A DNA stretch of 64,000 nt. Origin: a virus (lineage: Duplodnaviria; Heunggongvirae; Uroviricota; Caudoviricetes). Positions 9,887-54,800 of the stretch are shown piece after piece; position 1 is the first letter of the stretch; each line of letters begins with the position of its first letter. The notes below the pieces were generated by a model that did not search any database, was not told where the DNA came from, and saw nothing but the letters and a program-made list of their open reading frames with translations. Position numbers and translations under genes: made by a program. The stretch lies in IMG/VR virus record IMGVR_UViG_3300048598_000131; one strand, written 5' to 3'.

Positions 9887-9962
9887 GTCTCTATAGCTCA
9901 AATGGATAGAGCACGAGATTTCTAATCTTGTGATTTTGGTTCGATTCCAAATAGAGACACCA
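9887..9962 (+). tRNA. tRNA-Arg (anticodon UCU), CCA encoded
   Basis: Hand-folded cloverleaf. The acceptor stem GTCTCTA pairs with TAGAGAC. The D-arm is GCTC/GAGC. The anticodon stem CGAGA/TCTTG encloses the loop TTTCTAA, giving anticodon TCT. The T-arm is TTTGG-TTCGATT-CCAAA. ACCA is at the 3' end. Length 76 nt. Confidence 0.9.
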
Positions 9963-9965
9963 TCA

Positions 9966-10010
9966 AATTAAAAATAAATGTTGACTACTGTACAGTCTAT
10001 GCTACTGTGT
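9966..10010 (+). promoter_or_regulatory. sigma70-type promoter motif (AATTAAAAATAAATGTTGACT)
   Basis: TTGACT at 9981-9986 with the conserved upstream element. The -10 is unclear. Confidence 0.4.
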
Positions 10011-10910: not shown

Positions 10911-11230
10911 TGACAGCAAAAGAATTTAAATCCATTCGTGCCCAGCTCGAATTAAAACAATACGAGCTGGGTAAAAAGTTAGGCATACGCGCTTCTCGTA
11001 CATGCCGCTACGAAAATGGTATGAGTAGAATTCCAGAGGATGTAGCTACGAAGTTGCTGCACTTACAGCAATTAGATACTTATGCTAGATCACTCAATAA
11101 ATTTATTAAGTCTAAAGAGGGAAAGGCCGCTGTACGTTTAGCGCTTACGCGAACAGAAGTTGCGATTAAGCAGTTGCATGAATCGTGTGAGGCCTATAGA
11201 ACGTTTCTGGACGATGAGGTAACTATCTAA
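10910..11230 (+). CDS. XRE-family helix-turn-helix transcriptional regulator
   Basis: Contains LKQYELGKKLGIRASRTCRYENGMSRIPEDVATKLLHL, a canonical HTH_XRE pattern. The ATG overlaps the upstream stop (TAATG). Confidence 0.7.
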   Translation: MTAKEFKSIRAQLELKQYELGKKLGIRASRTCRYENGMSRIPEDVATKLLHLQQLDTYARSLNKFIKSKEGKAAVRLALTRTEVAIKQLHESCEAYRTFLDDEVTI

Positions 11231-11243
11231 TAACATTTAGTAT

Positions 11244-11552
11244 ATGCCATTCTTTAAAAAGAAAATTGATGTAAAGTCAGTAGGTAGTGCAGAGATGAAA
11301 AGCACCTTGGTATTCTTAAAGGAACGTCGAGACTCTTTGGAGTCAGAGGTGAAAGAATTACGCGTTACGCTTAAGGAAAAAGAAACTAGGTTGACTAATC
11401 TAATAAGAGTTTACAATAATTTGTCGTTGTTAGACATGGAGATTAAAGCTAAGCTAGCTAAGATCAGTGAACGGGACATAATTAAAGAGCGGGATAGAAT
11501 CAGAGAGCGACAGGCTAGACTGCATGAAGCAGGTATAACTGAAGGTTTATAA
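11244..11552 (+). CDS. hypothetical coiled-coil protein
   Basis: 102 aa with heptad-like charged repeats. Confidence 0.5.
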   Translation: MPFFKKKIDVKSVGSAEMKSTLVFLKERRDSLESEVKELRVTLKEKETRLTNLIRVYNNLSLLDMEIKAKLAKISERDIIKERDRIRERQARLHEAGITEGL

Positions 11553-11566
11553 TTTAGCCACATATG

Positions 11567-11599
11567 AAAGCTCGTAGATTGAATCTCTACGAGCTTTTT
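11567..11599 (+). terminator. rho-independent terminator between convergent genes
   Basis: AAAGCTCGTAGA ttgaatc TCTACGAGCTTT followed by TT. A perfect 12-bp stem. Confidence 0.7.
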
Positions 11600-11608
11600 G
11601 CTGTACGA

Positions 11609-11893
11609 CTATAACCTGATTAATTGTTCGAACTCAGGTGTGAGCCGTTTGATCGTGGGCAGGTTAGTGCTTAGGACTTGGGCACAGCGGCGTAGAGACG
11701 ACACAGCTTGGTTCTCGATGCCGGAAAGAAAAGCCAATTTGCATATAGCCGTATAGGCTGCGTTTACCTCGTGCTTTAGAAGGTCTTCACATCCAAGTGC
11801 TTTGAACATTTCCACTTCTTTCGGTGAAAATTCTGGGTAAGTTTCGTCTCTCAGTTGTTGATTTTGGGCTGTTGAATTCATGTCGTCTACCAT
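11609..11893 (-). CDS. hypothetical protein (one of only 6 minus-strand genes called)
   Basis: 94-aa ORF convergent with the upstream plus-strand block. Divergent from the promoter region at 11.9 kb. Confidence 0.5.
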   Translation of the reverse strand: MVDDMNSTAQNQQLRDETYPEFSPKEVEMFKALGCEDLLKHEVNAAYTAICKLAFLSGIENQAVSSLRRCAQVLSTNLPTIKRLTPEFEQLIRL

Positions 11894-11915
11894 ATCTTAA
11901 AATGTATACAAGTCA

Positions 11916-11969
11916 AATTAAAAATAATTGTTTACATTTGAAAATCGTGTGCTACGTTATGTATACATT
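11916..11969 (+). promoter_or_regulatory. sigma70-type promoter motif (AAATTAAAAATAATTGTTTACA ... ATGTATACATTT)
   Basis: TTTACA at 11931-11936 with the conserved upstream element. The downstream ATGTATACATTT block is identical to the one after the 952 promoter. Confidence 0.4.
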
Positions 11970-11978
11970 TACTAGCCT

Positions 11979-12440
11979 ATGTTAACCTATAGAAAGTCAC
12001 ATACAGATCACGCAGAATTACATACTAATGAGCGTAAGATGCTCGATCAAATCGATACGTACATCGATTTGATTTACATCTATTTTAAGGCTAATCAAAA
12101 GGAGGAGACAGCACGAGATTATCTGCTCTATACGTTTTTGCTTAAGCTGGATGAGATGATGATAGATCAGCTTGAGCGGCCTGCGCTGTTCGCTCAGTAT
12201 GAGTTTGACGTATTTGCCTACATTAAGGAGGCGCGTATCCCGGTGCTTAAGCAGCTGAAGCTTGTGGACGGCTGTATGCTCTTTGAGATGGAAGACGGCT
12301 CGTGTAAGTCAATCTATGATTTACGCGTTATTTTGGAAGCACAGTACGACAGTGAGAGTAAGCTACGTGCTTTGACATGGGACTACAATGCGTTTTTGCT
12401 GAGTGCCTGGGGGCTAGGATCTGTTAGTAAGAAGAGATAA
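11979..12440 (+). CDS. hypothetical protein
   Basis: 153-aa ORF. Confidence 0.5.
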   Translation: MLTYRKSHTDHAELHTNERKMLDQIDTYIDLIYIYFKANQKEETARDYLLYTFLLKLDEMMIDQLERPALFAQYEFDVFAYIKEARIPVLKQLKLVDGCMLFEMEDGSCKSIYDLRVILEAQYDSESKLRALTWDYNAFLLSAWGLGSVSKKR

Positions 12441-12953: not shown

Positions 12954-13823
12954 ATGAAAGACACATTATTTGAACCTGTAGTCGGAATACCAAAGTCATT
13001 TGAACAGTATGCAGAGAAGTTAAAGGGCGAAGATGATTCAAAATCATGCTTTCTTACTTTAGTCTCTGGTGCGAAAGAGCCAGAAGTCTGTAGCTGGGCA
13101 CATGACATGATGAATATGTACAAAGCTTGGTTTGAGAGCCTGGGCATGAAGTGTATTGTGCTGCATACAGCGTGCCTTGATGGTAAGCCAGAGCTTATCG
13201 CACGTGCGACGTTGCTGATAGTGGGTAACTATGCTTATGGCATTGGCAAGTGTGAGACGGGCATTCATCGGTGTAGTCGCTGGACGAAATTTAAGCCGAC
13301 GGCTATGCTGTGTACATGCTTTGTCTCAGTAGAGGTTTTACCGTTTGACGCTATAAGCGTTAAAGACTACGAAGCTGAGTTATTCTATTCTGTAGGTTTC
13401 GACTTTTTGGCTGGATCGTCTACGACGATTATTACTGCGATGCGTGAAGGAGCCGAAGCGAGTGTTACACTTACACCTGCTACTGAAATTAGCGTGATCG
13501 GGGCTTGCGTTAAAAATGACATAGCTGTTCCTAAGACAGAATATAAAGAGTCGGATGTTGCTACAGTTAAGGGAGGCAACTTAGAATCGGATATTATGGT
13601 TGCTATGGTCAAGCACCTGCTTGCCGCGAGATTGAACAACGGAGCGTTTAGCATAGCGTGGGGTAACATTATTCGCAGCTATGTGTTTGCGCCGTATACG
13701 GCGATAAAGGACAGCCGTAATGGCTATGAGACGGCTAACGTGAACGGAGTAGTGAACGGCGATTTAAACGAGTTAGTTGCCTTGTGGTTTGAGCACGGTT
13801 GTCCTAATACCTGCTCAGCATAG
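12954..13823 (+). CDS. hypothetical protein
   Basis: 289-aa ORF with good coding look. No motif recognised. Confidence 0.55.
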   Translation: MKDTLFEPVVGIPKSFEQYAEKLKGEDDSKSCFLTLVSGAKEPEVCSWAHDMMNMYKAWFESLGMKCIVLHTACLDGKPELIARATLLIVGNYAYGIGKCETGIHRCSRWTKFKPTAMLCTCFVSVEVLPFDAISVKDYEAELFYSVGFDFLAGSSTTIITAMREGAEASVTLTPATEISVIGACVKNDIAVPKTEYKESDVATVKGGNLESDIMVAMVKHLLAARLNNGAFSIAWGNIIRSYVFAPYTAIKDSRNGYETANVNGVVNGDLNELVALWFEHGCPNTCSA

Positions 13824-22279: not shown

Positions 22280-23635
22280 ATGCAATCATTTGATATTCAT
22301 ACTTTTGCTTGGCTGGCATTTCTGGCGCCGTTAGGACTATTTTGGCAGCAGGTAAGATCATTTGTGCTACGGCTGCTTGGCATTTTGATTAAGACTAGAA
22401 TGATTGAAGACTATACATTTTCAGAGGTGTACTACGTGTACTTGCACGATAAGTATCCTTGGTATAGGACAGATAATTATAAAATAGCACGTAACGGAGC
22501 ACAGTCTAAGGAATACAAGTGCATGGTTGAAGCGTACTTAAAGCTTCCGACTACTGAGATTATTCTGTATAAGTATTTCATACCTGTAATTGTTAGGGGC
22601 AGAAAAAATCGTGGAGTACAGATAATATATTTTAAATGGACATTTCCTTTTGAAAATCTATTTCGTATCTTAGACAGAGACTATGTAGCTAGCAGAATGG
22701 ATGCGTCTAAAAAGAGGCAAGAATTAAATGGTACAGGTAGAGATAGATTCGAAATAATTACTGAATCAGGTAGTTTAGGCCAAAAGTCTGACGGCCCTAT
22801 GAGCTACGCGGATAAGGCGATAAGAGATAAAGCTGAATCTGTTTCTGAACAGAATAAGACTGATGAAGATGCTGCTATTTTTGGCACGTATTCGGCTATA
22901 AATAGACGAGACACTTGGTGCAGCCTAGGATGGGATGTACTGGATTATGAATATTGTAGCGCTAATCCAGAAAAGGATCGGTTTCAAGAAACACCTGTGG
23001 CCAAAAAGGTGTTTAATCAGCTTAATACGTGGATTAGAGCTAAGCAGTGGTATGGAGAGCGTAATATACCTTGGAGGATAGGCTACATGTTCTACGGTGA
23101 TCCAGGTAATGGCAAGTCCACTCTAGCCGTGGAAATTGCTAAAAGGTTACAAATTTCATTGACCGTGTTTAATCTGCCTAGCATGACCGATTATGATTTT
23201 ATACGCGCGTGTCAAAGGGATGCGTGTAATAATGAAGTAGGTGTAGTGCTATTTGAAGATATAGATACTGTGTTTGAAAAAAGAAAAAATGTTAATGATA
23301 CAAGCATGCAGCATGGTGTGACATTTCAGTGTTTTTCAAACAAGCTAAGTGGTGCAGAAGGAATAAGGAATAGAATTATAATAATGACTGCAAATAATCT
23401 ATCTCAAATAGATCCAGCACTGTTGCGCAAGGGTCGGATAGATGAGCAGTTATTTATTGGACCGTTAACGCAGGCTGAAAAAGCAAAATTTGCTGCTACT
23501 ATTTTTGATGACGCTGAAACTATTCAGCGCGTAGTCAACGAGGGTGTTGACGATACTACAGCTGCGTTTGAATATCGGTGTACGTCAGAAGCACTGAATC
23601 AGTTCTGGAAAAATAAACATGTGGATAATTTATGA
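22280..23635 (+). CDS. membrane-anchored AAA+ ATPase (BCS1-like)
   Basis: N-terminal hydrophobic segment. Walker A GDPGNGKST. Walker B VVLFEDID. Sensor/Arg-finger region MTANNLSQIDPALLRKGRID. Confidence 0.75.
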   Translation: MQSFDIHTFAWLAFLAPLGLFWQQVRSFVLRLLGILIKTRMIEDYTFSEVYYVYLHDKYPWYRTDNYKIARNGAQSKEYKCMVEAYLKLPTTEIILYKYFIPVIVRGRKNRGVQIIYFKWTFPFENLFRILDRDYVASRMDASKKRQELNGTGRDRFEIITESGSLGQKSDGPMSYADKAIRDKAESVSEQNKTDEDAAIFGTYSAINRRDTWCSLGWDVLDYEYCSANPEKDRFQETPVAKKVFNQLNTWIRAKQWYGERNIPWRIGYMFYGDPGNGKSTLAVEIAKRLQISLTVFNLPSMTDYDFIRACQRDACNNEVGVVLFEDIDTVFEKRKNVNDTSMQHGVTFQCFSNKLSGAEGIRNRIIIMTANNLSQIDPALLRKGRIDEQLFIGPLTQAEKAKFAATIFDDAETIQRVVNEGVDDTTAAFEYRCTSEALNQFWKNKHVDNL

Positions 23636-24734: not shown

Positions 24735-25298
24735 ATGAAGAAGTTAGTGGGATCGGACATTGGATCATATGTGTTTACTCCAGCTAGTCGCACAATCGCA
24801 ATTAGTGGAGTGTCCGGTTTGTCGTTAAATCAATTTTTGCTTATTACTAACGTAACTAGTAATAAAATAGTATATAATTTCGCAGATTCTACCCTTGGTG
24901 GCACGCTATCCGGTAATATTCTGACATTAGCCTACGATACAACGGCAATGTCAGCCGATGATTCGTTACAGATATACATCGATCAACCTTATGCCACGGA
25001 TGACGAAATTACTCTTCTTAGACGTATTGTCAAACTTCTCGAATCTTCAGCTACTGTAGATAGCTCTAATAGGCAAAAAATCATTGTAGATAACATTGCT
25101 GCGGTTGCTCCAACTGTAAACGTAGCAGGGCCTAACGGTACACTAACAAGCAATAATCCGTCCGCTAACTTATACAGCGGATCTAGCGTAACGCCTGTAG
25201 GCATATTTGAAACTCCTGTTGATCAGCGCTGGCGCATCATTGATGCTGCTCATGCAACATACGCTGCTTGTATTCGTTCACAACTAGTTAATTCATAG
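24735..25298 (+). CDS. hypothetical protein (possible virion structural component)
   Basis: 187 aa, Ser/Thr/Asn-rich. Lies immediately upstream of the large repeat protein. Confidence 0.5.
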   Translation: MKKLVGSDIGSYVFTPASRTIAISGVSGLSLNQFLLITNVTSNKIVYNFADSTLGGTLSGNILTLAYDTTAMSADDSLQIYIDQPYATDDEITLLRRIVKLLESSATVDSSNRQKIIVDNIAAVAPTVNVAGPNGTLTSNNPSANLYSGSSVTPVGIFETPVDQRWRIIDAAHATYAACIRSQLVNS

Positions 25299-25300
25299 AT

Positions 25301-28159
25301 ATGGCAATCACTAATAACCTTAAAAAGGGTATAGATTTACCGACATGGGAATGGCTTAGATTTCAACCAGCTGTAAGCACAGCAGGCACAGTAATGTGTA
25401 CTTCAGATGACGGATCTGATCGGTACATCTATTACTTGAATACTACTACATTTTATCGTTATGATGCTTGGACTGACGGCTGGCAAACGCTAGCTCCTGC
25501 CATAACAGCCCCATCGACAGCAGCTTCTTTAAAATATACAGTGTATGGAGGATATCGCGGTAACTGCTTAGGTGCCACGTCTAATACAATTACTATTCCT
25601 GGGTTAAAGAATAACGCGCTTTTAGGTTATAAAATTAGAATTTTGTCAGGGACAGGAATGGGGCAGGAAAGAACTATCTCTAGTATAACCGATGCGACTA
25701 TTCAAGATTCAGGCATTATTACTGCGGGTGGCAACACATCTTTAACCGATAGCACTAAGAAATGGGCAATAAATCAATGGGTTGGATATCAAGTGCGCAT
25801 AGTCATGGGCACAGGTCTTTCTCAGATAAGGAAAGTGTTATATAACGATTCAACTAATATATACTGGTATGATGCTAATTACCAGCAGCTTGAACCCTGG
25901 GCCAATACTACGTTACCTACAGCCTTGTCTGCTACAGCTCCAAACCAAGCTCACTACTATATCGAATCATCAATTGCTACTGTTGATTCTAATTGGACAG
26001 TACAACCTGATGCTTCATCTAGCTTTTGCGTGCTAAGCGGTGGCGTTTGGTATCTCACATCGGCTACAACGACTCCTTACGGTATTCTTTTCTTTTATGA
26101 CGTGGTTAGCGATACTTGGACAACTAAAACAGGTATGTTCGGTGTATTGCCAACATCAGCTTTGACACAAGCAGGTTCTCCAGAATTTCCATTAGAGCGA
26201 ACAGGTGAAGTAGGGGGTGCGTATCTAACAGGCACAGCGACCGCAGCAAGCAATACTGACAGGTCTTTGACTGATTCGTCTAAGGCATTAACCGTGGGAA
26301 TGTACAATAACTATCAAATTCGTATCACAGGAGGTACAGGAATTGGGCAAAGGCGCAGGATAGTTACGTCTACAGCGGATATGTTCTATATTGAATATCC
26401 GTGGGATATCGTTCCAGATACTACTTCAACCTATTCTATTTTTGCGAATGTTGATAATATCTACGTAATGGGTGGATCGAATGGTTCTACTATTTTTAAT
26501 TACTCAGTAGAAAAGGATTTATGGACTTATGGACATGTCATAGATTGTGGCACTGTTACTACCTTTTCTGCGGCTTATGCGGGGCAAGAACCGTTCGGAC
26601 TATCTTCAGGAACACGTAATGCGGGAGGAATTTACACCGTAAATGCAACACCAGTTGCAGCAGGTTCAGGCTATGTTGTAGGAGACCTATTGACATTAAC
26701 TACTGGGGGTTCAAATGGTACTGTTAGAGTTACAGGCATATCAGGACTTGGGGCAATCACATCTGTATCATTATACCGTTGCGGATCTGGTTATTCAACA
26801 GGAACATCAGCAACTTCTGGCGGAACAGGTTCTAGCGCGACAATCAGTATTACAGCGGTTGGTTATACAGGATATCTAACAACAGTCGTAAATCACAATC
26901 TATGTGTGGGAGATTCTGTTGTCATAACGGGTAGTAATGAAACAAATTGGAATAGCACATTCACTCTTATTGGTTGTAACTCTCTTACAACTTTCGAGAT
27001 AGCAATACCTTCGTCTACAGGTTCTGCCGGTCCTAGTACGAATATTACTAGCACAACTATTACTGATTCAACAGCAAGTTGGGCAACGAATGAACTTGCA
27101 GGCTGTATTTGTATGCTTCAGGCACCTGGCACAACGCCAGCCACAGTTTATCAGCGCAGAATTGCAAGTAATGCAGCAACATATCTCACGTTTACCACAA
27201 CAATGGCGTCAAATCCTGTTAGTGGCACTTGGCGTTATGCAATTACGAGGCAATGGGGACTAGGGTCTGACACTCAATATAAGACTGCTAATCAAAGTAA
27301 TACAGGGTTTGCTACAAGTGGAACAACGACTACATTGGTAGATTCTTCAAAAGCTTGGAAAGCAGGTCAATGGCTTGGTTATAAATTAATCGTGGTGTCT
27401 GGCACAGGCTGGGGAACAGGTGAAATAACTATTAATAGTAATTCAACTAATTCTTTAGTTTTTTCTACTCAAACTTTTACACCGGATGCAACTACACGAT
27501 ACATTATTGCAGACGGCTTTGGAACAGCTTCTGCCACAGGTACAACCACAACTTTAATAGATAGCTCTAAAAACTGGATTACCAATCAATGGGCTGGACA
27601 GCAGGTGCGAATGCTCTCTGGAACAGGAGCTGCGCAGTTTTCAACAATTCAAAGCAATACCGCGACAACTTTAACATTTACTGCTGTAACAACAGCACCT
27701 GTGGCCGACACACAATACATGATTCAAGGAGTGCTCCCAAGAGGTGCTGGTTGCAGTAATCAATGGGCCTTTGGCGGGACTGATGCAACTAAAGCAGGTA
27801 AATATCTTTATAGTGCTAGAGGTGGCGGTACTACAGGGTTTGATCGTTATGATATTACGACTAACTTATGGGATATAAACTTATCCGCTTTACCATTAAG
27901 CGAAACGCTCAATACTGGAACAATGGTAGCATATGATGGAGTGAACCGTATTTATTTCACAGTTAATGCCACTGGTCGTGTGCTCTATGTCGATTTGACT
28001 ACGCTAAAGATAGGCTCATTGAGCACAACACCATTTGCTCAGGGCACAGCGCTAACCGGTAATAAAATGGAAATAATTACTACTCCTGATGGCTTGAACT
28101 ATTTGTATGTTATGAGACATACAGGTCAGGAATTCTTCCGAACTCTTATTTTCCTATGA
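25301..28159 (+). CDS. large internally repeated protein (952 aa), probable structural/fibre-like protein
   Basis: At least 5 copies of a roughly 35-aa module T/I-DS-x-K-x-W-x-x-N-Q/E-W/L-x-G-Y/Q-x-x-R-I/M-x-x-G-T-G. Examples: TDSTKKWAINQWVGYQVRIVMGTG, TDSSKALTVGMYNNYQIRITGGTG, VDSSKAWKAGQWLGYKLIVVSGTG, IDSSKNWITNQWAGQQVRMLSGTG. Confidence 0.65.
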   Translation: MAITNNLKKGIDLPTWEWLRFQPAVSTAGTVMCTSDDGSDRYIYYLNTTTFYRYDAWTDGWQTLAPAITAPSTAASLKYTVYGGYRGNCLGATSNTITIPGLKNNALLGYKIRILSGTGMGQERTISSITDATIQDSGIITAGGNTSLTDSTKKWAINQWVGYQVRIVMGTGLSQIRKVLYNDSTNIYWYDANYQQLEPWANTTLPTALSATAPNQAHYYIESSIATVDSNWTVQPDASSSFCVLSGGVWYLTSATTTPYGILFFYDVVSDTWTTKTGMFGVLPTSALTQAGSPEFPLERTGEVGGAYLTGTATAASNTDRSLTDSSKALTVGMYNNYQIRITGGTGIGQRRRIVTSTADMFYIEYPWDIVPDTTSTYSIFANVDNIYVMGGSNGSTIFNYSVEKDLWTYGHVIDCGTVTTFSAAYAGQEPFGLSSGTRNAGGIYTVNATPVAAGSGYVVGDLLTLTTGGSNGTVRVTGISGLGAITSVSLYRCGSGYSTGTSATSGGTGSSATISITAVGYTGYLTTVVNHNLCVGDSVVITGSNETNWNSTFTLIGCNSLTTFEIAIPSSTGSAGPSTNITSTTITDSTASWATNELAGCICMLQAPGTTPATVYQRRIASNAATYLTFTTTMASNPVSGTWRYAITRQWGLGSDTQYKTANQSNTGFATSGTTTTLVDSSKAWKAGQWLGYKLIVVSGTGWGTGEITINSNSTNSLVFSTQTFTPDATTRYIIADGFGTASATGTTTTLIDSSKNWITNQWAGQQVRMLSGTGAAQFSTIQSNTATTLTFTAVTTAPVADTQYMIQGVLPRGAGCSNQWAFGGTDATKAGKYLYSARGGGTTGFDRYDITTNLWDINLSALPLSETLNTGTMVAYDGVNRIYFTVNATGRVLYVDLTTLKIGSLSTTPFAQGTALTGNKMEIITTPDGLNYLYVMRHTGQEFFRTLIFL

Positions 28160-30058: not shown

Positions 30059-30173
30059 ATGTAGCTACACTTAAAATAATTAAAAAATAATGTAGACAGT
30101 TAATCAAAAGTGTGCAATAGGTTATTAAGTGTTAGATTTATACTAACTTAAAATTAACTTAAAACAAAGTACC

Positions 30174-30419
30174 ATGGCTAAAAATACAAAAAATAAAACG
30201 GTCCGCTCTGCCGGACAAAAACTGATCAGTATCCCTGTGTCGGATGATTTCATGTACGCAGTGGATGAAGGCCTGCCAAAAGTTGGGTTCGCTTCGCGTT
30301 CAGAGATGATTCGCATGGCGATCATCAAGCTTTACGAAGCAAATGGGATCAAAATTGATCCCAGCTTGGCTATGCCACCGTCTCGTGTAGGCAAAGGTGG
30401 CCGTCCTCCCAAAAAGTAA
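30174..30419 (+). CDS. ribbon-helix-helix (CopG/Arc-like) DNA-binding protein with basic C-terminal tail
   Basis: ISIPVSDDFMYAVDE....GFASRSEMIRMAIIKLYE gives the beta-strand, helix and helix pattern of RHH. Ends GKGGRPPKK. Preceded by the AATTAAAAAATAATGTAGACA promoter-like motif at 30078-30098. Confidence 0.55.
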   Translation: MAKNTKNKTVRSAGQKLISIPVSDDFMYAVDEGLPKVGFASRSEMIRMAIIKLYEANGIKIDPSLAMPPSRVGKGGRPPKK

Positions 30420-30494
30420 TATCTGAAATCTACGCGGACGGCAGCGTGTAATCGCCGTGGCAGCTCGGAAAGACGAGCCTTCTTAAAATTCCCT

Positions 30495-31532
30495 ATGAAA
30501 AACAAAAGAGATATTCTGTACTCAGATGACGGCGATAAGTCGCAGATTAAATCCAGTGTATTTGAATCAGCATCAGCGGTTGAGCTGGTGCTTTTATTTG
30601 TGATTATAGCCATGGTGTTGGTGTTTGGAGCTATGAGCACGGTGTTTACTGTGGCCGCTAGTGATGAGGCTGTTGTGACACAATTTGGAGCATACGACCG
30701 GACTGTCGGCCCGGGCATTCACATGAAATTTCCATGGATCGAGAACGTTCGAAAAGTTCCTGTCAAAAGCCAGCTACGCATGGAATTTGGCTTTAGAACA
30801 GGCGCTACACGCGATACAGAGCAGCGGGCTGGCGGTGGTAGTCGTAATCGCACACATTATACAGATGCGCCTAAAGATGAGGCTGAAGTGCTTACAGGAG
30901 ACTTATATGTCATTCACCTAGAGTGGAGCACGCAGTTTCGAATCACGTCAGCTAAAGATTGGCTGTTTAGCTTGCGAGATCCATTAGCTACATTTGCTGA
31001 CTTGAATGAAGCTACGGTGCGCGAAATACTTGGTGATCGCACGTTTGATGAGGCTCTAACCACAGGTAGAACTGAGATACAAGAAGAAGTGCACCGAGTC
31101 TTGCAAGCTAGGTGTAAGCTGTATGGATTACCCATAACTGTGGATCAAGTCATTTTGCAGGATGTGGCGCCGCCAGCATCAGTGCAACAAGCGTTCATTG
31201 AAGTGAATGGCGCACTTCAAGAGAAAGAGACGTTGATCAATAACGCTCAAAAGGAATATAACGCTGTAATTCCAAAAGCTAGAGGAGAGGCCATTGCTCT
31301 AGTCTCTAAAGCAATTGGAAATGCCACGGAGCAAACAAATAAAGCTTACGGTGATATTGCGCGGTTCAGGGCGCTATACGCGTCATACACGAACTCACCG
31401 GAAATGACGCGAATTCAGCTTTATATCGATGCGATGAATTCGTTTAGTACTTGCGGTGTGTCAAAAGTAGTCGTTGATGATAAGTTGCCGCCTGGTTTTA
31501 TCTATGCTCCAAACCTTAAGTTAACAAAGTAA
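30495..31532 (+). CDS. SPFH/band-7 protein, HflK-like
   Basis: N-terminal TM, then VVTQFGAYDRTVGPGIHMKFPWIENVRKVPVKSQ and ...AQKEYNAVIPKARGEA..., which are typical of HflK. Confidence 0.75.
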   Translation: MKNKRDILYSDDGDKSQIKSSVFESASAVELVLLFVIIAMVLVFGAMSTVFTVAASDEAVVTQFGAYDRTVGPGIHMKFPWIENVRKVPVKSQLRMEFGFRTGATRDTEQRAGGGSRNRTHYTDAPKDEAEVLTGDLYVIHLEWSTQFRITSAKDWLFSLRDPLATFADLNEATVREILGDRTFDEALTTGRTEIQEEVHRVLQARCKLYGLPITVDQVILQDVAPPASVQQAFIEVNGALQEKETLINNAQKEYNAVIPKARGEAIALVSKAIGNATEQTNKAYGDIARFRALYASYTNSPEMTRIQLYIDAMNSFSTCGVSKVVVDDKLPPGFIYAPNLKLTK

Positions 31533-31544
31533 TCTGTACAAATT

Positions 31545-32471
31545 ATGAAACGTTTAAGCTTAATCGTAATGACAGTTATGGCCTTTTTCTTGCTGTCGCT
31601 CATCATGGGATGCTATTGGATAGTTGAAGAAGGCAATCAAGGTTTTTTGACCACGTTTGGAAAGCCCGCTAGTGCAACTTATACGAATGCAGGGTATTAT
31701 GTAAAGTTTCCATTTATTCAGTCAGAACATATCTTTGAAAAGCGTGTTTTGGATTGGGATGGAAATCCAAACCTAGTATCAACCAGAGATAAGCGAATGA
31801 TTTACATTGATCCGTTCGCTCGTTGGAGAATTACGGATGCTAAGACATTCTATAGCAAATTTGTGGACGAAAGCACAGCTATTGTGCGCCTGGACGACGT
31901 GTTAGATGGCGCTACGAAAACTGTTGTTGCTGAGCACGATTTAGCGGATGTAGTCAGGTCTAAGCCGCGCAAAGACGATCCAACTCTAGTGACTTTTAGC
32001 TCTGGAAGAGAACAACTAGAGTCGGAGATATTGGCTTTGGCTAGATCGAGCATCACCAATTGGGGAATTGAAATCCTGGACGTGCGTTTGCAGCGCGTTA
32101 AATATGAATCAGATAACTTGGCAAAGATTACTGTACGTATGGCCGCAGAGCGCAGAGCTGTTGCCGAGAAATACCGGTCAGAAGGACAAGGTGAAGCCGA
32201 GCAAATCCTTGGCAATAGGGACAAAGAGCAAAAGGTGTTAATGTCTGATGCTCAGCGTAAAAGTGCAGAGATAGCAGGTAAAGCCTTGGAAAAGTCTATG
32301 GCGATCTATGCGAGTATTGTGCAAGATAGTCAAGGTAATCCGAGCGCAGATGCTGAAAGGCTTTATGAATATAGCGCGATGCTATCTTTATATACTAAGA
32401 TGTTTTCAACTAATGATGTTGTTGTTCTATCTACAACAAACAGCTTTTTGACGCACCTCAAGGGAAAATAG
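31545..32471 (+). CDS. SPFH/band-7 protein, HflC-like
   Basis: N-terminal TM, then GNQGFLTTFGKP...YYVKFPFIQSEHIFEKRVLDWDG...WRITDAKTFY, which matches the HflC pattern. Adjacent to the HflK-like gene, as in bacterial hflKC operons. Confidence 0.75.
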   Translation: MKRLSLIVMTVMAFFLLSLIMGCYWIVEEGNQGFLTTFGKPASATYTNAGYYVKFPFIQSEHIFEKRVLDWDGNPNLVSTRDKRMIYIDPFARWRITDAKTFYSKFVDESTAIVRLDDVLDGATKTVVAEHDLADVVRSKPRKDDPTLVTFSSGREQLESEILALARSSITNWGIEILDVRLQRVKYESDNLAKITVRMAAERRAVAEKYRSEGQGEAEQILGNRDKEQKVLMSDAQRKSAEIAGKALEKSMAIYASIVQDSQGNPSADAERLYEYSAMLSLYTKMFSTNDVVVLSTTNSFLTHLKGK

Positions 32472-32476
32472 CACGT

Positions 32477-32510
32477 AATCCCTTGGGCTAATTCGGCTCA
32501 AGGGATTTTT
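32477..32510 (+). terminator. rho-independent terminator after the HflKC-like pair
   Basis: AATCCCTTG ggctaattcggct CAAGGGATT, then TTT. Confidence 0.7.
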
Positions 32511-32550
32511 AAATATTTTTGTTTACTTTTAGCTAAAAGTCTGTAGATTA
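32511..32550 (+). promoter_or_regulatory. sigma70-type promoter (ATATTTTTGTTTACT ... TAGATT)
   Basis: TTTACT at 32522-32527 and TAGATT at 32544-32549. Confidence 0.4.
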
Positions 32551-32555
32551 CTGTT

Positions 32556-32834
32556 ATGCAAGAAAAAGTCTATATCACCTACGATGCTTTAACAAAGGGC
32601 ATAGTTTGCGCAAATGCCGAAGTGTGCGGTAGCAATCACGAAGACATTTCTGTGCACATACCATATTCTCTTTATGTAAAGTATTACAAAAAAGGAGATT
32701 GGTTTCGCACGAAGGAGGAGGCCGTAGCTAGAGCCGAAGCAATGCGCAAAAAGCGAATAGCTTTGATTAACCGGCAGTTGGAAAAGTTGTCTAAGCTGGA
32801 TTACAACGTGATCTGTGATCGCACAGTTTCTTAA
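32556..32834 (+). CDS. small protein, paralog family D (member 1)
   Basis: MQEKVYITYDALTKGIVCANAEV...WFRTKEEAVARAEAMRKKRIALINRQLEKLSKL. Confidence 0.55.
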   Translation: MQEKVYITYDALTKGIVCANAEVCGSNHEDISVHIPYSLYVKYYKKGDWFRTKEEAVARAEAMRKKRIALINRQLEKLSKLDYNVICDRTVS

Positions 32835-32875: not shown

Positions 32876-33136
32876 ATGAAAGAAAAATTTTATGTCACGA
32901 ACTATGCCCTAACAAAGGGAATATTGTGTATGACAGGTGAGGTAGACGCTAGCAGACAAGATGTGCTTATTTCGGGTTTTCAATTTTTTCACAAAAATGA
33001 GTGGTTTCGAACGAAGGAGGAGGCTGTAGCTAGAGTTGAAGCTATGCGTCAGGAGAAGATTGAGTCCATTAATCGGCAATTGGCTAAGTTGACTAAAATG
33101 GATGTTACAAAGGTTACAGACACTACTACAGACTAG
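32876..33136 (+). CDS. small protein, paralog family D (member 2)
   Basis: MKEKFYVTNYALTKGILCMTGEV...WFRTKEEAVARVEAMRQEKIESINRQLAKLTKM. Confidence 0.55.
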   Translation: MKEKFYVTNYALTKGILCMTGEVDASRQDVLISGFQFFHKNEWFRTKEEAVARVEAMRQEKIESINRQLAKLTKMDVTKVTDTTTD

Positions 33137-33155: not shown

Positions 33156-33413
33156 ATGCAAGAAAAAGTTTACATCACGAAGTACGCGCTGACTAAAGGC
33201 ATTTATCATTTATCTGCGGAAATTGATGGAAAGTATGCGCATGCTACATTGCCGGGGGCGCACTTTCCTTCGGTGTTTTCTGCTAGCGAGTGGACTCGTT
33301 CGAAAATAGACGCTGAAGATAGGGCCACTGATATGCGCTGCAAGAAAATTAAGGCTTTAGAAAGAAAAGCAGCTGTGTTAGTTAGGATAAATACAAAAAT
33401 TGTGGAGATTTAA
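33156..33413 (+). CDS. small protein, paralog family D (member 3)
   Basis: MQEKVYITKYALTKGIYHLSAEI... Confidence 0.5.
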   Translation: MQEKVYITKYALTKGIYHLSAEIDGKYAHATLPGAHFPSVFSASEWTRSKIDAEDRATDMRCKKIKALERKAAVLVRINTKIVEI

Positions 33414-34140: not shown

Positions 34141-34494
34141 ATGACATTATTAAATAGTTATACAGATGGAAAGAAACAAGTAACAGCATACATTGTAAAA
34201 GATGCAGTAAACACAGGAATTATATGCGCTACAGGGTGCGTGTATAAAAGGTCTCCGCATACCCTATACGCCGTGGTCAACGGACGAGAATGTGTGTATA
34301 AACAGAGTGAGTGGGACTATTCAAAAGAAGAAGCAGAGAAGAAAGCCTTGCGTTTAAAAACTGATTATCTTCTGAAAGGCCAGAAGATATTAACCACGAA
34401 ACTAGGCCATCTTGTTCGGCTCCAGCAAGAGATCGACGCATTTAAACGGCAACTAAAAACTGTGGAAGATCGGCCTCTATACGCCGCATCCTAA
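34141..34494 (+). CDS. small protein, paralog family D (member 4, divergent)
   Basis: TAYIVKDAVNTGIICATGCV...SEWDYSKEEAEKKALRLK follows the same YxTxxALTKGIxC...W..(S/T)KEEA pattern. Confidence 0.5.
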   Translation: MTLLNSYTDGKKQVTAYIVKDAVNTGIICATGCVYKRSPHTLYAVVNGRECVYKQSEWDYSKEEAEKKALRLKTDYLLKGQKILTTKLGHLVRLQQEIDAFKRQLKTVEDRPLYAAS

Positions 34495-48827: not shown

Positions 48828-51800
48828 ATGCCTACCATACCAGGTACAGTAGTAGCAGCAGCAATAACAACGGGTGATACCAATCTTTTATTTTCAATTG
48901 GTGATACAAATGAAATGCAGGGAGGCCATCATTCAGTAGCAGCAGATACTGATAGAGACAATATACCTAGCGCGAGACGAACAGAAGGTATGAGCTGCTG
49001 GGTACAGACGAGCCAGAAACTTTATAGGCTTGTAGGTGGTATAGACAATTCTAATTGGACTGAAGTTACCGTAGCTCCAACCGGTTATACTGGTTACACT
49101 GGTCCTCAAGGTCCTGGAGGAGAAGATGGAGGCCCAACAGGATACACAGGGTACACTGGACCTACAGGAGTTACCGGTTATACCGGTTACACTGGGCCGC
49201 AGGGAAATGCATCAACAGTTACGGGCTATACCGGTTACACTGGTTCATCAGGTAGTCAAGGCAGCACTGGATTTACTGGTTTTACCGGGTACACCGGATA
49301 TCAAGGGATTCAGGGATCAACTGGCTACACTGGATTTACAGGACCACAAGGAATACAAGGAGTTACAGGATATACTGGCTACACCGGTTATACTGGAAGA
49401 ACTGGATATACAGGATATACTGGAAATCAAGGTTCAACCGGCTACACTGGTTATACTGGTCCATCAGGCGCGCAAGGGACTACAGGGTATACCGGTTATA
49501 GCGGTCAAACAGGCTATACGGGTTACACCGGACCGCAAGGAAGTCAAGGGAGTACCGGCTATACAGGATTTACAGGACCTATCGGAGCTGCATCAACTGT
49601 AACAGGGTATACGGGATACACTGGTTATACGGGAAGAACGGGATACACCGGTTACACTGGTTCACAAGGAATTCAAGGTGCTACTGGTTATACAGGATTT
49701 ACAGGACCACAGGGAGTGCAAGGCGTAACGGGTTATACGGGATACACAGGTAGTCAGGGTGCCCAAGGCAGTGCTGGATTAGCAGGCGATACAGGATATA
49801 CCGGATATACAGGTTATACAGGACCTCAAGGAATTACAGGATACTCGGGTTCTCCAGGTCCAACAGGCTACACTGGCTATAGTGGTCAAGGCTATTTAGC
49901 CCATAGCTATTCAGCGCTTACGCTTACACTAGGCTCAGTGGCCTATGCAACAGCAGAAACTAATTTAGCTTATGCCGTAAGTGATAGAGTGCAGTTAACA
50001 TGTACCAGCGATCCTGCTGTATGGATGGCTGGATTTATTACAAATTATGACGGTGTAAATTCGTACGTAATAAATGTAGACCTGCTTAATGGTAGTGGAT
50101 CATATACAAGTTGGTCAGTAAGCTTGACAGGTAGGCTAGGAGCAACCGGTTATACAGGCTATACCGGAGCACAAGGAATTCAAGGTGCTACCGGCTACAC
50201 AGGCTATCAAGGTCCTACAGGTTATACCGGATTTACCGGTCCACAAGGTATTCAGGGTGTAACAGGTTACACAGGATATACTGGTAGAACAGGATATACG
50301 GGTTATACTGGTCCGCAAGGACAAACAGGATATACGGGTTATACTGGTCCACAAGGAAGCCAAGGTTCTACAGGTTATACAGGTTATACAGGATTTACGG
50401 GCTATACGGGTTACACGGGGCCTTCAGGCAGCAATGGAAGTCAAGGCTCAACTGGTTACACCGGGTACACAGGAGCTGCATCAACAGTTACGGGGTACAC
50501 CGGCTACACAGGTGCTGCGTCTACTGTAACAGGCTACACAGGTTATACCGGTCCTGTAGGTGCTGCATCAACTGTAACAGGGTATACAGGATACACTGGT
50601 TCTACTGGTCAAACAGGATACACAGGCTACACTGGTCGAACAGGATATACGGGCTACACTGGATCTCAGGGAATTCAAGGATTTACGGGTTATACAGGAT
50701 ACACTGGTCCAGCAGGTAGCAACGGTAGTCAAGGTAATACTGGTTACACAGGGTACACTGGCTATACAGGTCCTGTTGGTGCTCCATCAACTGTGACAGG
50801 TTATACTGGTTATACAGGATCTTCTGTAACAGGCTATACCGGATACACCGGTCCTCAAGGGCCGCAAGGACCGGGTGGAGAGAGCGGAGGCCCTACAGGA
50901 TATACAGGATATACAGGAGTAACGGGCTACACAGGGTACACAGGCTATACGGGACCTCAAGGACTAACAGGCTATGCAGGTTCAGCTGGTCCGACTGGCT
51001 ACACAGGGTATACAGGTTCAGGCTATTTGGCTTACAGCTATTCTGCGCTTACCGTCACTCTAGGATCAGTTGCTTATGCTACAGTTGAATCGGGCTTGGC
51101 TTACAGTATAGGGGATAGAGTTCAGCTTACTTATACAAGTGACTATAATATATGGATGTCAGGTACGATAACCGGATTTGATGGCGTAAATTCGTACGTG
51201 ATAAATGTGGATGCCACAAGCGGCAGTGGCTCATATATAAGTTGGTCAGTAGGTTTAGCTGGTAGAATTGGTTTTACTGGCTATACTGGACCTCAGGGAA
51301 TTCAAGGCTCTACAGGCTATACTGGTTACACAGGCAGTCAAGGCAATACCGGCTATACAGGATATACAGGACCTCAGGGTATCACAGGATACACTGGATA
51401 TACAGGTCCTGCTTCTACAGTAACAGGCTACACAGGATATACTGGTAGAACGGGATACACGGGATATACGGGTGGAACTGGTTATACCGGTTATACAGGT
51501 TACACAGGACCTGTTGGTAGCGCTTCTACGGTTACTGGCTACACAGGATTTACAGGTTATACCGGTCCGCAGGGTATTCAAGGAACTACAGGGTACACAG
51601 GGTACACCGGTTACACAGGGCCTGCTTCAACTGTTACAGGTTACACAGGTTACACTGGACGAACAGGATATACAGGTTACACAGGCCCACAGGGCACTAC
51701 TGGATATACAGGTTACACTGGACCTGCTGGATCTGCGTCTACAATTACAGGCTATACCGGTTACACTGGATATACTGGTCCTAGCGGCGTAACAGGCTAT

Positions 51801-54800
51801 ACAGGTTTTCAAGGAACTACAGGCTATACAGGTTACACAGGCTACACAGGTCCCGCTGGATTACAGGGGCCTACTGGCTATAATGGGGATCAGGGACCTA
51901 CGGGCTACACTGGTTACACCGGTTCAGGCTATTTAGCGTCAACTACTTCAACCCTTACAATTACAACCGGATCTGTAGCTTTTTCTACACTTAATAGCGG
52001 ATTAGCCTACGAAATCGGAGATAGAATACAGGTAACATCCACGAGTAGCTCTGATTTATGGATGTCTGGATATATAACAGGATTTGATGGTGTTAATCTA
52101 TACACATTTAATGCTGATACTTGCAACGGTGCAGGATCTTACAGTAGTTGGTCAGTGAGCCTAGCAGGAAAACCTGGCTCTACTGGTTATACAGGCTATA
52201 CAGGTCCACAAGGAAATCAAGGAACTATAGGATTTACTGGCTATACTGGATACACTGGAGTAACAGGTTACACAGGTTACACAGGTCCGCAGGGAAATGC
52301 ATCTACTGTAACAGGATACACAGGATATACAGGCAGAACTGGCTATACAGGTTATACCGGTCCGCAGGGAGCAACCGGTTACACCGGATTTACTGGTCCT
52401 CAAGGAATTCAAGGTGTAACTGGTTATACAGGTTATACAGGTTCACAAGGTATTACGGGCTACACAGGCTACACCGGAGCTGCGTCTACGGTTACGGGTT
52501 ATACAGGATATCAAGGAATTCAAGGTAGTACAGGATATACAGGCTACACTGGATCACAAGGCAATACGGGTTATACTGGCTATACGGGTCCTACTGGTGC
52601 AGCGTCTACTATTACAGGTTATACAGGTTTTACTGGCTATACTGGTCCACAAGGGAATCAAGGTGTCACAGGCTACACAGGATTTACAGGTCCAGCTGGT
52701 GCTGCATCAACTGTTACTGGTTACACAGGCTATACCGGTTACACAGGTCCAACAGGATTGGCTTCTACAGTAACAGGCTACACTGGCTATACAGGGAGAA
52801 CTGGCTATACAGGTTACACTGGATCAAATGGTGCTACAGGTTATACAGGCTACACAGGTTCAGCCTCTACAGTTACTGGCTATACTGGCTACACAGGATA
52901 TACTGGTCCACAGGGATTAGCCTCTACTGTTACAGGTTACACTGGCTACACAGGACCGCAAGGGAATCAAGGTGTCACAGGCTACACAGGATATACGGGT
53001 TACACTGGACCATCTGGCGCCGCATCTACTGTTACGGGCTACACTGGATACACGGGCTACACTGGTTCGCAAGGAATTCAAGGTCCTACAGGCTATACAG
53101 GATTTACAGGCCCTACTGGTTCAGCATCTACTGTTACTGGATACACAGGATATACTGGCTACACAGGATATCAAGGGGTCACAGGATATACGGGCTACAC
53201 CGGTCCTTCAAGAGGCAACAATATTGTTGTAGCCCTTCCAGCTAATGTCGGTGATTATACAGAAATAGGAAATTGGCTAAAGGCGAACGGACCACACAGT
53301 CTTATTTTAACAGCTACTTTATCAGATTTAGGCATGTCGGTGTCTCAGACATATCTGATAAATACAAGGTTTAATCTTACCTCTGGAACGTGGTATCGGC
53401 TAGTTCCGTCTAATATAAACACGCAACCAGAGATAACTTTCGACATAGATTTAAGTCAGACAAATAGCTATCTATACTTAAGAATACGAAAAACAAATGG
53501 TACATCAGCTAGTAATGTAAATATATACATACTAAACACAGGATACGCTGATGACGCTTTTACACAGACATATGGAACAGGTAGCACAACTGTTCCGACT
53601 AATAGTCTTACATGCGGCGTAGGACCTACAGGATATACGGGTTATACTGGGCCTGCTTTAAGCAGAATGTTTGATTTAGGACTGTTGCCCGCTGCTACTG
53701 CTAATTATGCACGTTATTATAGATTTGCTACGTTGCCTGTTAGCAGTGCAAGTACTTTTGATACACTGTGGTTGCACATGACTACAGGGGGCTGGATATC
53801 TGCTTCAAAAACTTATATTGATTTTAAGTGCGGTAATAGAGGCGGGTTTTACTACACATGGAATTACACAGGTTCATCGCCTAGAACAGGCAGCTATAAT
53901 AGTTTACAGGCTTACATAGAATCTACAGGAGCAGTTACGCTATACGTGACGGTAGCGGCTAATTCATACAGCTGTAGCGGAGTTTCAGTCATAAACAGCG
54001 AAGGTGCTTCAGTTGAAACTAGCTTCGTATACTTGGGAGATAATGTCACGCCTACAGGCACTCTAGCCTTTGATAGCGCAACATATTCAGTGTATGATAC
54101 TGAAGGCTCCGTGACGTCGAATATGCTGGGTGATACCCACTGGGTTCCAGGGACTGTAGGATCGCAAGGAACGTATAAATATTATAATGCTTACGGCACT
54201 GGTTCAAATAACAGTGTGTCTGTGATACAGGGGCCACATACTGAAGACATTGTGGCATGGCATGCTCCAGCGACAGGTCAGTCTACCTATGATGGTGGAT
54301 TTGATACGCCTTACATGACGATAGACAATAATAAGGCGTATAGATATACATGCTGGGTAAGTGTTGCAAATGATAACACAAATGGTGCTTATATCTATTT
54401 TGGACATAATGCTGGCTCTCTTTTAAACTTAGATGGTTCCACTCAGGTTTCTCCGAATTTTACTTATGTACCTCCTTCAGCGCTTACTTTAGGCAGATGG
54501 TACTTGATGGTTGGATATATATGGCCTAATGCCACAAGTAGAACTGCATCATCTAATCTTGGCGGTATATACGACGGAGTAACTGGTGCACAGATAGCTA
54601 ATGGAACTGATTTTAAGTGGGCATCTACGTCAGTTACTGCGTCATTAGTTACCACGGCTTTAGCGTCCACGACAGCTGTTGGAGACTTTTACTGGTGTGA
54701 ACCAGCTATAGAAGAGCTAAGCGGCAAAGAAAGACCGCTTAGTACCATACTTGGGTTAAAATCGGCTGTGAGCACGGTAGTTTCAGTTGTACTTCCTACC

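Follow-up and report, generated by a model that had tools for sequence, protein, structure and literature searches.

In many bacteria, FtsH is the sole membrane AAA+ protease that is essential, and its control by HflK and HflC (together HflKC) is under active debate, with a closed cage set against an open "nautilus". In Escherichia coli, FtsH hexamers are surrounded by a 24-subunit assembly of HflK and HflC, which controls the access of membrane substrates to the protease (PMC12048511). Whether E. coli HflKC inhibits or enhances degradation is likewise debated (PMC12048511). Among phages, a literature search returned single SPFH or "HflC family" genes only (44RR, Aeh1, RB43, PhiSH19, CSP3 and Seahorse), and the authors of the paper on Burkholderia phage CSP3 state explicitly that orf75 has no other hfl gene beside it in that phage (PMC10269572). 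Here, an adjacent hflK-hflC pair is described in uncultured tailed-phage DNA (IMG/VR record IMGVR_UViG_3300048598_000131). The stretch analyzed, termed the window, comprises 64,000 nt of a 99,354-bp JGI contig, and all coordinates are window positions unless a contig is named. The pair lies behind a gene for a ribbon-helix-helix (RHH) protein, and the elements of the locus, including the transmembrane (TM) helices of the two proteins, are as follows.

30073-30123, + strand: promoter of a window-wide phage family, with an A/T-rich upstream element, AATG, a -35 hexamer TAGACA (30093-30098) and a weak -10 at about 30115-30123
30144-30164, + strand: tandem direct repeat TAACTTAAAA-T-TAACTTAAAA with an 11-nt period, between the promoter and the RHH start
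30174-30419, + strand: RHH protein gene; 81 aa, with a conserved basic C-terminal tail PxRxGKGGRP
30495-31532, + strand: hflK homologue; 345 aa, with an N-terminal TM helix, SPFH domain, long coiled-coil helices and a C-terminal tail
31545-32471, + strand: hflC homologue; 308 aa, with an N-terminal TM helix followed by SPFH and coiled-coil regions; start 12 nt past the hflK stop
32477-32520, + strand: intrinsic terminator; 13-bp stem and 5-nt loop (32477-32507), then the U-rich tract UUUAAAUAUUUUU

Identity of the Two SPFH Proteins

The two proteins are ordinary members of the HflK and HflC families. Both match Pfam Band_7/SPFH, with E values of 1e-25 for the 345-aa protein and 9e-27 for the 308-aa protein, and both match PHROG 200. 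Against the NCBIfam equivalog models, the 345-aa protein scores 221.1 bits on TIGR01933 (HflK; curated cut-off 159.4), and the 308-aa protein scores 180.7 bits on TIGR01932 (HflC; cut-off 134.4) over profile positions 4-318 of 318. HflK on the HflC model and HflC on the HflK model both fall far under the cut-offs, and the two proteins are therefore distinguishable as K and C. The enterobacterial HflK model PRK10930 lies out of reach (138 against 660), in keeping with a distant lineage.

The architecture of the pair is that of the cellular proteins. Each protein carries one N-terminal hydrophobic helix, at residues 20-56 in HflK and as a TM segment at residues 1-29 in HflC. In a phmmer search of PDB sequences, phage HflK aligns to residues 84-139 and 149-346 of E. 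coli HflK, and phage HflC to residues 6-327 of E. coli HflC, in both cases chains of the solved FtsH-HflKC complexes and matched along almost the whole protein. An AlphaFold2 (AF2) model of HflK, built from 18 sequences with a mean predicted local distance difference test score (pLDDT) of 72, has a TM helix at 28-47, a beta-rich SPFH domain and helices at 228-300 (73 residues) and 303-319. Foldseek ranks E. coli HflK chains first for this model (E 1e-17), above HflC, stomatin, prohibitin, erlin and flotillin. An invariant arginine, R176 of phage HflK, aligns to E. coli R193, close to the reported Arg191 contact of E. coli HflK (PMC12048511) and with a two-residue mismatch in numbering. The order of the genes is also the usual one, since 80 of 85 bacterial loci have K before C with a short gap, mostly of -10 to +30 nt. 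The initial annotation had read the two adjacent SPFH/band-7 proteins as HflK and HflC and had named searches with Band_7/SPFH and the HflK and HflC TIGRFAMs as the check; the curated cut-offs, the alignments to E. coli chains and the fold ranking of HflK bear this reading out.

Regulatory Signals Around the Pair

All three open reading frames (ORFs) are on the + strand and together span 30174-32471, with gaps of 75 nt between the RHH gene and hflK and 12 nt between hflK and hflC. Upstream of the RHH gene lies a copy of the motif AAWWWAATGTTGACW, which occurs 13 times in the window against 3.4 expected, a count reached by 0 of 100 shuffles. Aligned intergenic copies share an A/T-rich stretch, AATG, TTGACA, a spacer of 16 or 17 nt and TAnnnT, and the motif is common to at least seven other window genes. 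The copy at 30084-30098, which is separated from the RHH start by 76 nt, is degenerate in both hexamers (TAGACA and a poor -10) and weaker than the other copies. The 75-nt gap between the RHH gene and hflK holds no promoter motif. Just past the hflC stop, the terminator folds with a minimum free energy of -22 kcal/mol (z -5.27), and 0 of 200 shuffles fold as well. A terminator-like site at 30569-30592 lies inside the hflK coding sequence and was taken as chance. The unit had been described earlier as one with a conserved promoter motif before the RHH gene and a strong terminator at its end; both features hold, the promoter copy being a weaker member of its family. Elsewhere in the window, the phage promoter motif occurs without mismatch at 9972-9986, immediately past a tRNA-Arg (TCT) at 9887-9962 (+).

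The RHH protein was assigned through its family. Alone, it scores 15.1 bits on Pfam RHH_1, under the cut-off of 20.5; a word-indexed search returned only the protein itself, and phmmer against PDB gave spurious matches only. Among 1.84 billion representatives, a full HMMER search recovered 225 relatives, typically with 36-51% identity across residues 10-80. A 41-member alignment has the consensus RxxGQKLxxVPxxExFxxxIDxxLxxxGYSDRSxFIRDAIxEKL...PxRxGKGGRP, and its profile matches the RHH domains of NikR from H. pylori, E. coli and P. horikoshii in PDB (best E 1.5e-6) as well as HicB3; 14 of the 41 members match RHH_1 individually. The AF2 monomer model, with a pLDDT of 62 only, has a strand at 17-22 and helices at 24-33 and 42-56, and Foldseek found no meaningful match with this low-confidence model. 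Going by these family comparisons, the earlier assignment of an upstream RHH DNA-binding protein is supported at the family level.

The TAACTTAAAA 10-mer has just two exact copies in the window on both strands, and these are adjacent to each other. The repeat they form at 30144-30164 is a candidate operator for the RHH protein, because its 11-nt spacing would suit a pair of RHH dimers binding in tandem. None of the 85 bacterial hflKC loci fetched has a member of this RHH family nearby, and the linkage of the RHH gene to hflKC is therefore the phage's own arrangement.

Bacterial Origin and Adaptation to the Phage Genome

The closest relatives of the pair are bacterial. The nearest HflK group (P0002-P0020) is 59-65% identical to the window protein, P0021 is 53% identical, and the next matches reach at most 47%; the source-named sequences among these last are from Aminicenantes. 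A profile search of genome contigs gave, among the matches listed, HflK relatives of 39-46% identity. An 11-residue insertion in the SPFH region is common to window HflK and the close group. Members of this group on long contigs adjoin cellular genes (such as HisRS, HU, IspH and a sigma factor), and hflC stands beside hflK in every case. The same bacterial contigs are best for both genes, with HflK at 58.5-61.5% and HflC at 49.5-55.7% identity (56, 50 and 51% for three neighbours), and window HflC is 56% identical to the HflC beside the closest HflK, on contig L001. Both genes were therefore acquired together.

The donor was probably a Verrucomicrobiota-like bacterium (Limisphaerales/Pedosphaera-like), because the HisRS on contig L001 is 74-77% identical to Limisphaerales/Pedosphaera HisRS, and because of the placement of HflK in the tree. 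In a neighbour-joining tree, window HflK branches as the sister of the entire close group, and the joint clade is sister to HflK of Limisphaerales and Verrucomicrobia. The composition of the pair is that of the phage. The GC content at third codon positions (GC3) is 41-42% in the pair, 39 ± 7% in other window genes and 66-83% in the bacterial relatives. Relative synonymous codon usage of the pair has a correlation of 0.68 with that of phage genes and of -0.26 with that of bacterial orthologues. The match to phage genes in both measures therefore excludes both a recent transfer and an assembly chimera, and it implies that the pair has been in a low-GC genome for a long time.

Two observations were made on the bacterial contigs themselves. 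A 76-aa membrane-protein gene of the PF14373 Imm_superinfect family lies directly 5' of hflK on three of them (L002 9760-9990, L003 6336-6566 and L004 971-1201), which suggests an imm-hflK-hflC operon in these Verrucomicrobiota-like genomes. On L002, hflC (11034-12014) is split into ORFs of 88 and 228 aa, by a frameshift, a long-read sequencing error or as a pseudogene.

Rarity Among Viruses

Screening of phage databases gave no second example of the pair. A tblastn search with HflK against 50,697 GenBank phage records returned four records only. Two of these are mis-filed 501-kb Salmonella contigs; the other two are "UNVERIFIED Bacteriophage sp." faecal contigs, each with a lone SPFH protein of 24-26% identity that scores 110-115 bits, under the HflK cut-off. 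With HflC, the matches were confined to the Salmonella contigs and to a 1.4-kb fragment filed as a Salmonella "phage". Thus 0 of the 50,697 records is a genuine phage record carrying an hflK-hflC pair. Three pattern-based scans of 2.9 million IMG/VR contigs, one of them with a 21-sequence alignment, found no relative, though a proteobacterial-type HflK would escape such scans. A literature search for hflK and hflC as auxiliary metabolic genes found no such link. These counts agree with the original remark that viral hflKC is uncommon. The novelty is in the location, a complete and ameliorated pair in a phage transcription unit, for which no precedent was found.

Conservation of the Phage Copies

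To describe how far the phage copies have diverged, columns conserved at 95% or more among 80 bacterial HflK/HflC pairs were used, with the bacteria scored leave-one-out. Both phage ORFs are intact. Phage HflK keeps 68 of 77 conserved columns (88%) and phage HflC 56 of 66 (85%), against a bacterial mean of 98-99%. About half of the changes at these columns are conservative. On this comparison, fold and pairing have evidently been maintained under somewhat altered constraints.

The Phage Setting of the Locus

The window is very likely phage DNA, a view based on tail fibres, tape-measure homology, architecture and PHROG matches rather than on hallmark genes. It has 87 of 95 non-overlapping ORFs on the + strand, tightly packed and mostly without a database match, and dense unidirectional ORFans stand on both flanks of the hflKC unit. 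Four collagen-like tail-fibre proteins are present (phrog_6320, E 4.5e-138), one of them being the 2,727-aa protein listed below. The window also has thyA, dUTPase, MazG-like and NUDIX genes, the tRNA-Arg(TCT) and 21 PHROG families. Pfam and PHROG scans of about 90 ORFs found no capsid, portal or terminase gene within the 64 kb, and one "portal" PHROG match is a NUDIX domain. No bacterial housekeeping genes were found in the 64 kb. The virus setting assumed in the initial annotation is supported by the tail genes, the architecture and the PHROG matches; its analogy with lambda CII is without local support, as no lysogeny genes were found within the window. Three large genes of the window are listed here.

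25301-28159, + strand: 952-aa protein without a Pfam or PHROG match
48828-57011, + strand: collagen-repeat fibre protein; 2,727 aa, with a C-terminal Peptidase_S74 intramolecular chaperone domain
57023-61003, + strand: glycosyltransferase fusion; 1,326 aa, with several GT domains (GT9, GT2, DXD-type) and a methyltransferase domain; next after the fibre gene

At 41% identity, the 952-aa protein matches Pam2_66 of Pseudanabaena phage Pam2, a protein encoded directly after the distal-tail and minor-tail genes. It is probably a tape measure protein, because Pam2_66 sits in the tail module of Pam2. This gene and thyA make Pam2 the sole cultured-phage link found. Proteins 38-46% identical to the 952-aa protein occur on seven IMG/VR contigs and also on JGI/lake-type metagenome contigs. 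Within 10 kb on either side of these homologues there is no hflKC and at most one further gene in common with the window, the 187-aa ORF at 24735-25298, in two of the seven IMG/VR loci.

Several other genes of the window deserve mention. Right past the hflC terminator are four tandem paralogues (32556-32834, 32876-33136, 33156-33413 and 34141-34494, all +), small proteins with the motif MQEKVYIT.YALTKGI ... W.RTKEEA, which probably account for three phrog_22725 matches. A 451-aa AAA ATPase (22280-23635, +) has mitochondrial BCS1 (E 1e-23) and p97/Cdc48-type proteins as its closest solved relatives, and no IMG/VR relative of it was found. It was considered as a phage FtsH-like partner and ruled out, being BCS1/p97-like and having no M41 peptidase domain. 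A 559-aa protein (61956-63635, +) has a DnaJ-type CXXCXGXG zinc-finger domain, with no J domain detected. A 289-aa protein with a PCRF domain (12954-13823, +) has release factor 2 (RF2, prfB) as its best match, at 119 bits against a cut-off of 370, and is thus a truncated or divergent RF2-like protein. Stop codons in 83 window genes are TAA in 51, TAG in 27 and TGA in 5 only. The RF2-like protein and the rare TGA may reflect manipulation of stop-codon reading. The AAA ATPase, the zinc-finger protein and the RF2-like protein fit a theme of host takeover, with no specific link to hflKC. A Shine-Dalgarno-like 4-mer at -20 to -4 is found in only 10 of 87 + strand genes, yet the promoters are sigma-70-like (TTGACA-N16/17-TAnnnT, A/T-rich upstream), a combination unusual for host inference.

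Proposed Role and Alternative Explanations

The best explanation from our analysis is that the phage pair is expressed, assembles in the host inner membrane and alters host FtsH proteolysis, a proposal about evenly poised between right and wrong. A tailed phage captured a complete hflK-hflC operon from a Verrucomicrobiota-related (Limisphaerales/Pedosphaera-like) lineage, kept it long enough for the pair to adopt phage codon usage, and placed it in a phage unit made of a sigma-70-type promoter of its own family, the RHH gene, hflK, hflC and a strong intrinsic terminator. A promoter of the type used by host RNA polymerase would drive the pair, and the RHH protein would probably autoregulate through the tandem repeat before its own start, possibly damping expression. 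Both single-pass proteins would enter the inner membrane of the host, where they would form an SPFH cage together, as cellular HflKC does. As the most likely consequence, the cage would engage or enclose host FtsH hexamers, and proteolysis of membrane or regulatory substrates would be retuned to the benefit of the phage. The manipulation of FtsH-dependent proteolysis suggested in the initial annotation is thus plausible, drawn as it is from the role of the family in E. coli. It is possible, if on the unlikely side, that a phage-built HflKC around host FtsH replaces or out-competes host HflKC and shields phage membrane or regulatory proteins, or redirects FtsH. As part of such an enclosure, the coiled-coil substitutions could lock the cage in an inhibitory closed state.

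Several points weigh against an FtsH-directed role. E. coli HflKC regulates aerobic respiration, a role independent of FtsH (PMC12005517). Losses at family-conserved residues are heavier in the phage copies than in any typical bacterial orthologue, and the changes that are not conservative cluster in the coiled-coil/C-terminal region (Y276N, R280Q and R308Q in HflK; L229Q, D248L and Y259V in HflC). The function of the phage pair may have shifted, because conserved residues were lost and several of the changes are non-conservative. The GC content of the phage is 42.5% and that of donor-like bacteria 54-60%, a gap of 12-18 points, so the present host may lie outside the donor lineage, and the host inference is tentative. 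Co-transcription of the RHH gene, hflK and hflC is likely rather than proven, and an attenuator in the RHH-hflK gap was rejected, since RNA folding there is not significant (z -0.05). Genes of the integrase, CI/Cro-like or CII-like type were absent from the Pfam and PHROG results for about 90 window ORFs.

The respiratory role of E. coli HflKC is also a starting point for the main competitor, in which the pair would form an FtsH-independent membrane scaffold that organises or stabilises host microdomains, for example for respiration and energy supply, or that takes part in superinfection exclusion. We regard this as unlikely, yet as a serious contender. It draws on the partnerless SPFH genes of T4-like, Vi01-like and Burkholderia CSP3 phages, on the SPFH gene of PhiSH19, which adjoins a superinfection exclusion gene, on the PF14373 gene directly 5' of hflK in the closest bacterial relatives, and on the divergence of the phage copies at several family-conserved residues. 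However, both proteins score as HflK and HflC equivalogs and not as generic SPFH proteins, and the retention of two partners points to the canonical hetero-oligomer. The window has no Imm-like neighbour, the upstream gene encoding instead an RHH protein without a TM segment. PADLOC gave no match for the three proteins and four neighbours, and a defence-system reading was dropped. The remaining explanations, lambda-style lysogeny, decay and artefact, are less likely than both the FtsH reading and its FtsH-independent competitor. In a lambda-like lysis-lysogeny control, a temperate phage might adjust, by way of its HflKC and FtsH, how stable its own CII-like regulator is; two papers tie the hfl locus historically to the lambda lysogeny decision (PMC10269572, PMC7012835), and a small DNA-binding regulator gene lies within the hflKC unit. 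The lack of lysogeny genes in the scans above and the large, unidirectional genome rich in nucleotide-metabolism genes, more like that of a virulent phage, make this improbable.

Decay and artefact were weighed against the intactness and the composition of the pair. As decaying passengers, the genes would have no function for the phage; they do show more conserved-site substitutions than bacterial orthologues, and their promoter copy is degenerate. Nevertheless, intact ORFs of 345 and 308 codons persist after full compositional amelioration, 85-88% of near-invariant residues are retained, and a dedicated promoter, regulator and terminator are present, so that decay is very improbable. The least probable case, for which we see only a slim chance, is that the pair is not phage-borne, the locus being a mis-assembled bacterial fragment or the window a bacterial island. 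The nearest homologues are indeed all on bacterial contigs, the window is without capsid, portal or terminase genes, and the IMG/VR scans did not recover the source contig. Against this, the codon usage and GC3 of the pair fit the surrounding genes and not the bacterial homologues, the promoter motif of the unit recurs before other window genes, and the 64 kb combine unidirectional ORFan flanks, tail-fibre genes, a tape-measure homologue and many PHROG matches with no housekeeping gene.

Significance

A pair kept for long by a phage is a natural experiment, which implies that altered dosage or properties of HflKC pay off in infection. As a diverged HflKC variant, it may reveal through its substitutions which features of the cage matter. 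The finding widens the list of host-derived takeover genes in phages, where single SPFH genes are now joined by a full hetero-oligomeric system. For a phage group of which hardly any relatives are in culture, it also provides a tentative link to a host or donor (Verrucomicrobiota). If phage HflKC does enclose host FtsH, this would be the first virus known with a complete two-subunit SPFH cage, and takeover would proceed by supplying the native regulatory compartment of the protease, not an inhibitor.

Comparison with Known Systems

Bacterial HflK and HflC, including those of the E. coli FtsH-HflKC complex (PDB 7VHP, 7WI3, 9CZ2), are like the phage pair in gene order and short gap, and in an architecture of one N-terminal TM helix, SPFH domain, coiled-coil helices and C-terminal tail. 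The phage pair is about 26% identical to E. coli HflKC and about 60% identical to the nearest bacterial pair, and 12-15% of family-conserved positions are changed in the phage. Phage HflK (345 aa) is without the long N-terminal cytoplasmic extension of E. coli HflK (419 aa). The genetic context also differs, with a phage promoter and an RHH gene in the window and hfq-hflX-hflK-hflC or another cellular context in bacteria. The closest relatives, the uncultured Verrucomicrobiota-like pairs (P0002-P0021; L001-L005), share the 11-residue insertion and the K-C adjacency, but they differ in a GC3 of 66-83% and in housekeeping neighbours; three of them have the PF14373 gene 5', and none has the RHH gene.

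The SPFH genes of cultured phages (T4-like 44RR, Aeh1 and RB43; Vi01-like PhiSH19; CSP3 orf75; PHROG 200) also encode viral SPFH membrane proteins. These are lone genes with weak Pfam scores, whereas the window has both HflK and HflC above the equivalog cut-offs. Lambda CIII, a small competitive inhibitor peptide, inhibits FtsH. The outcome proposed here is alike, namely altered FtsH proteolysis, but this phage would supply the host-type regulatory cage itself.

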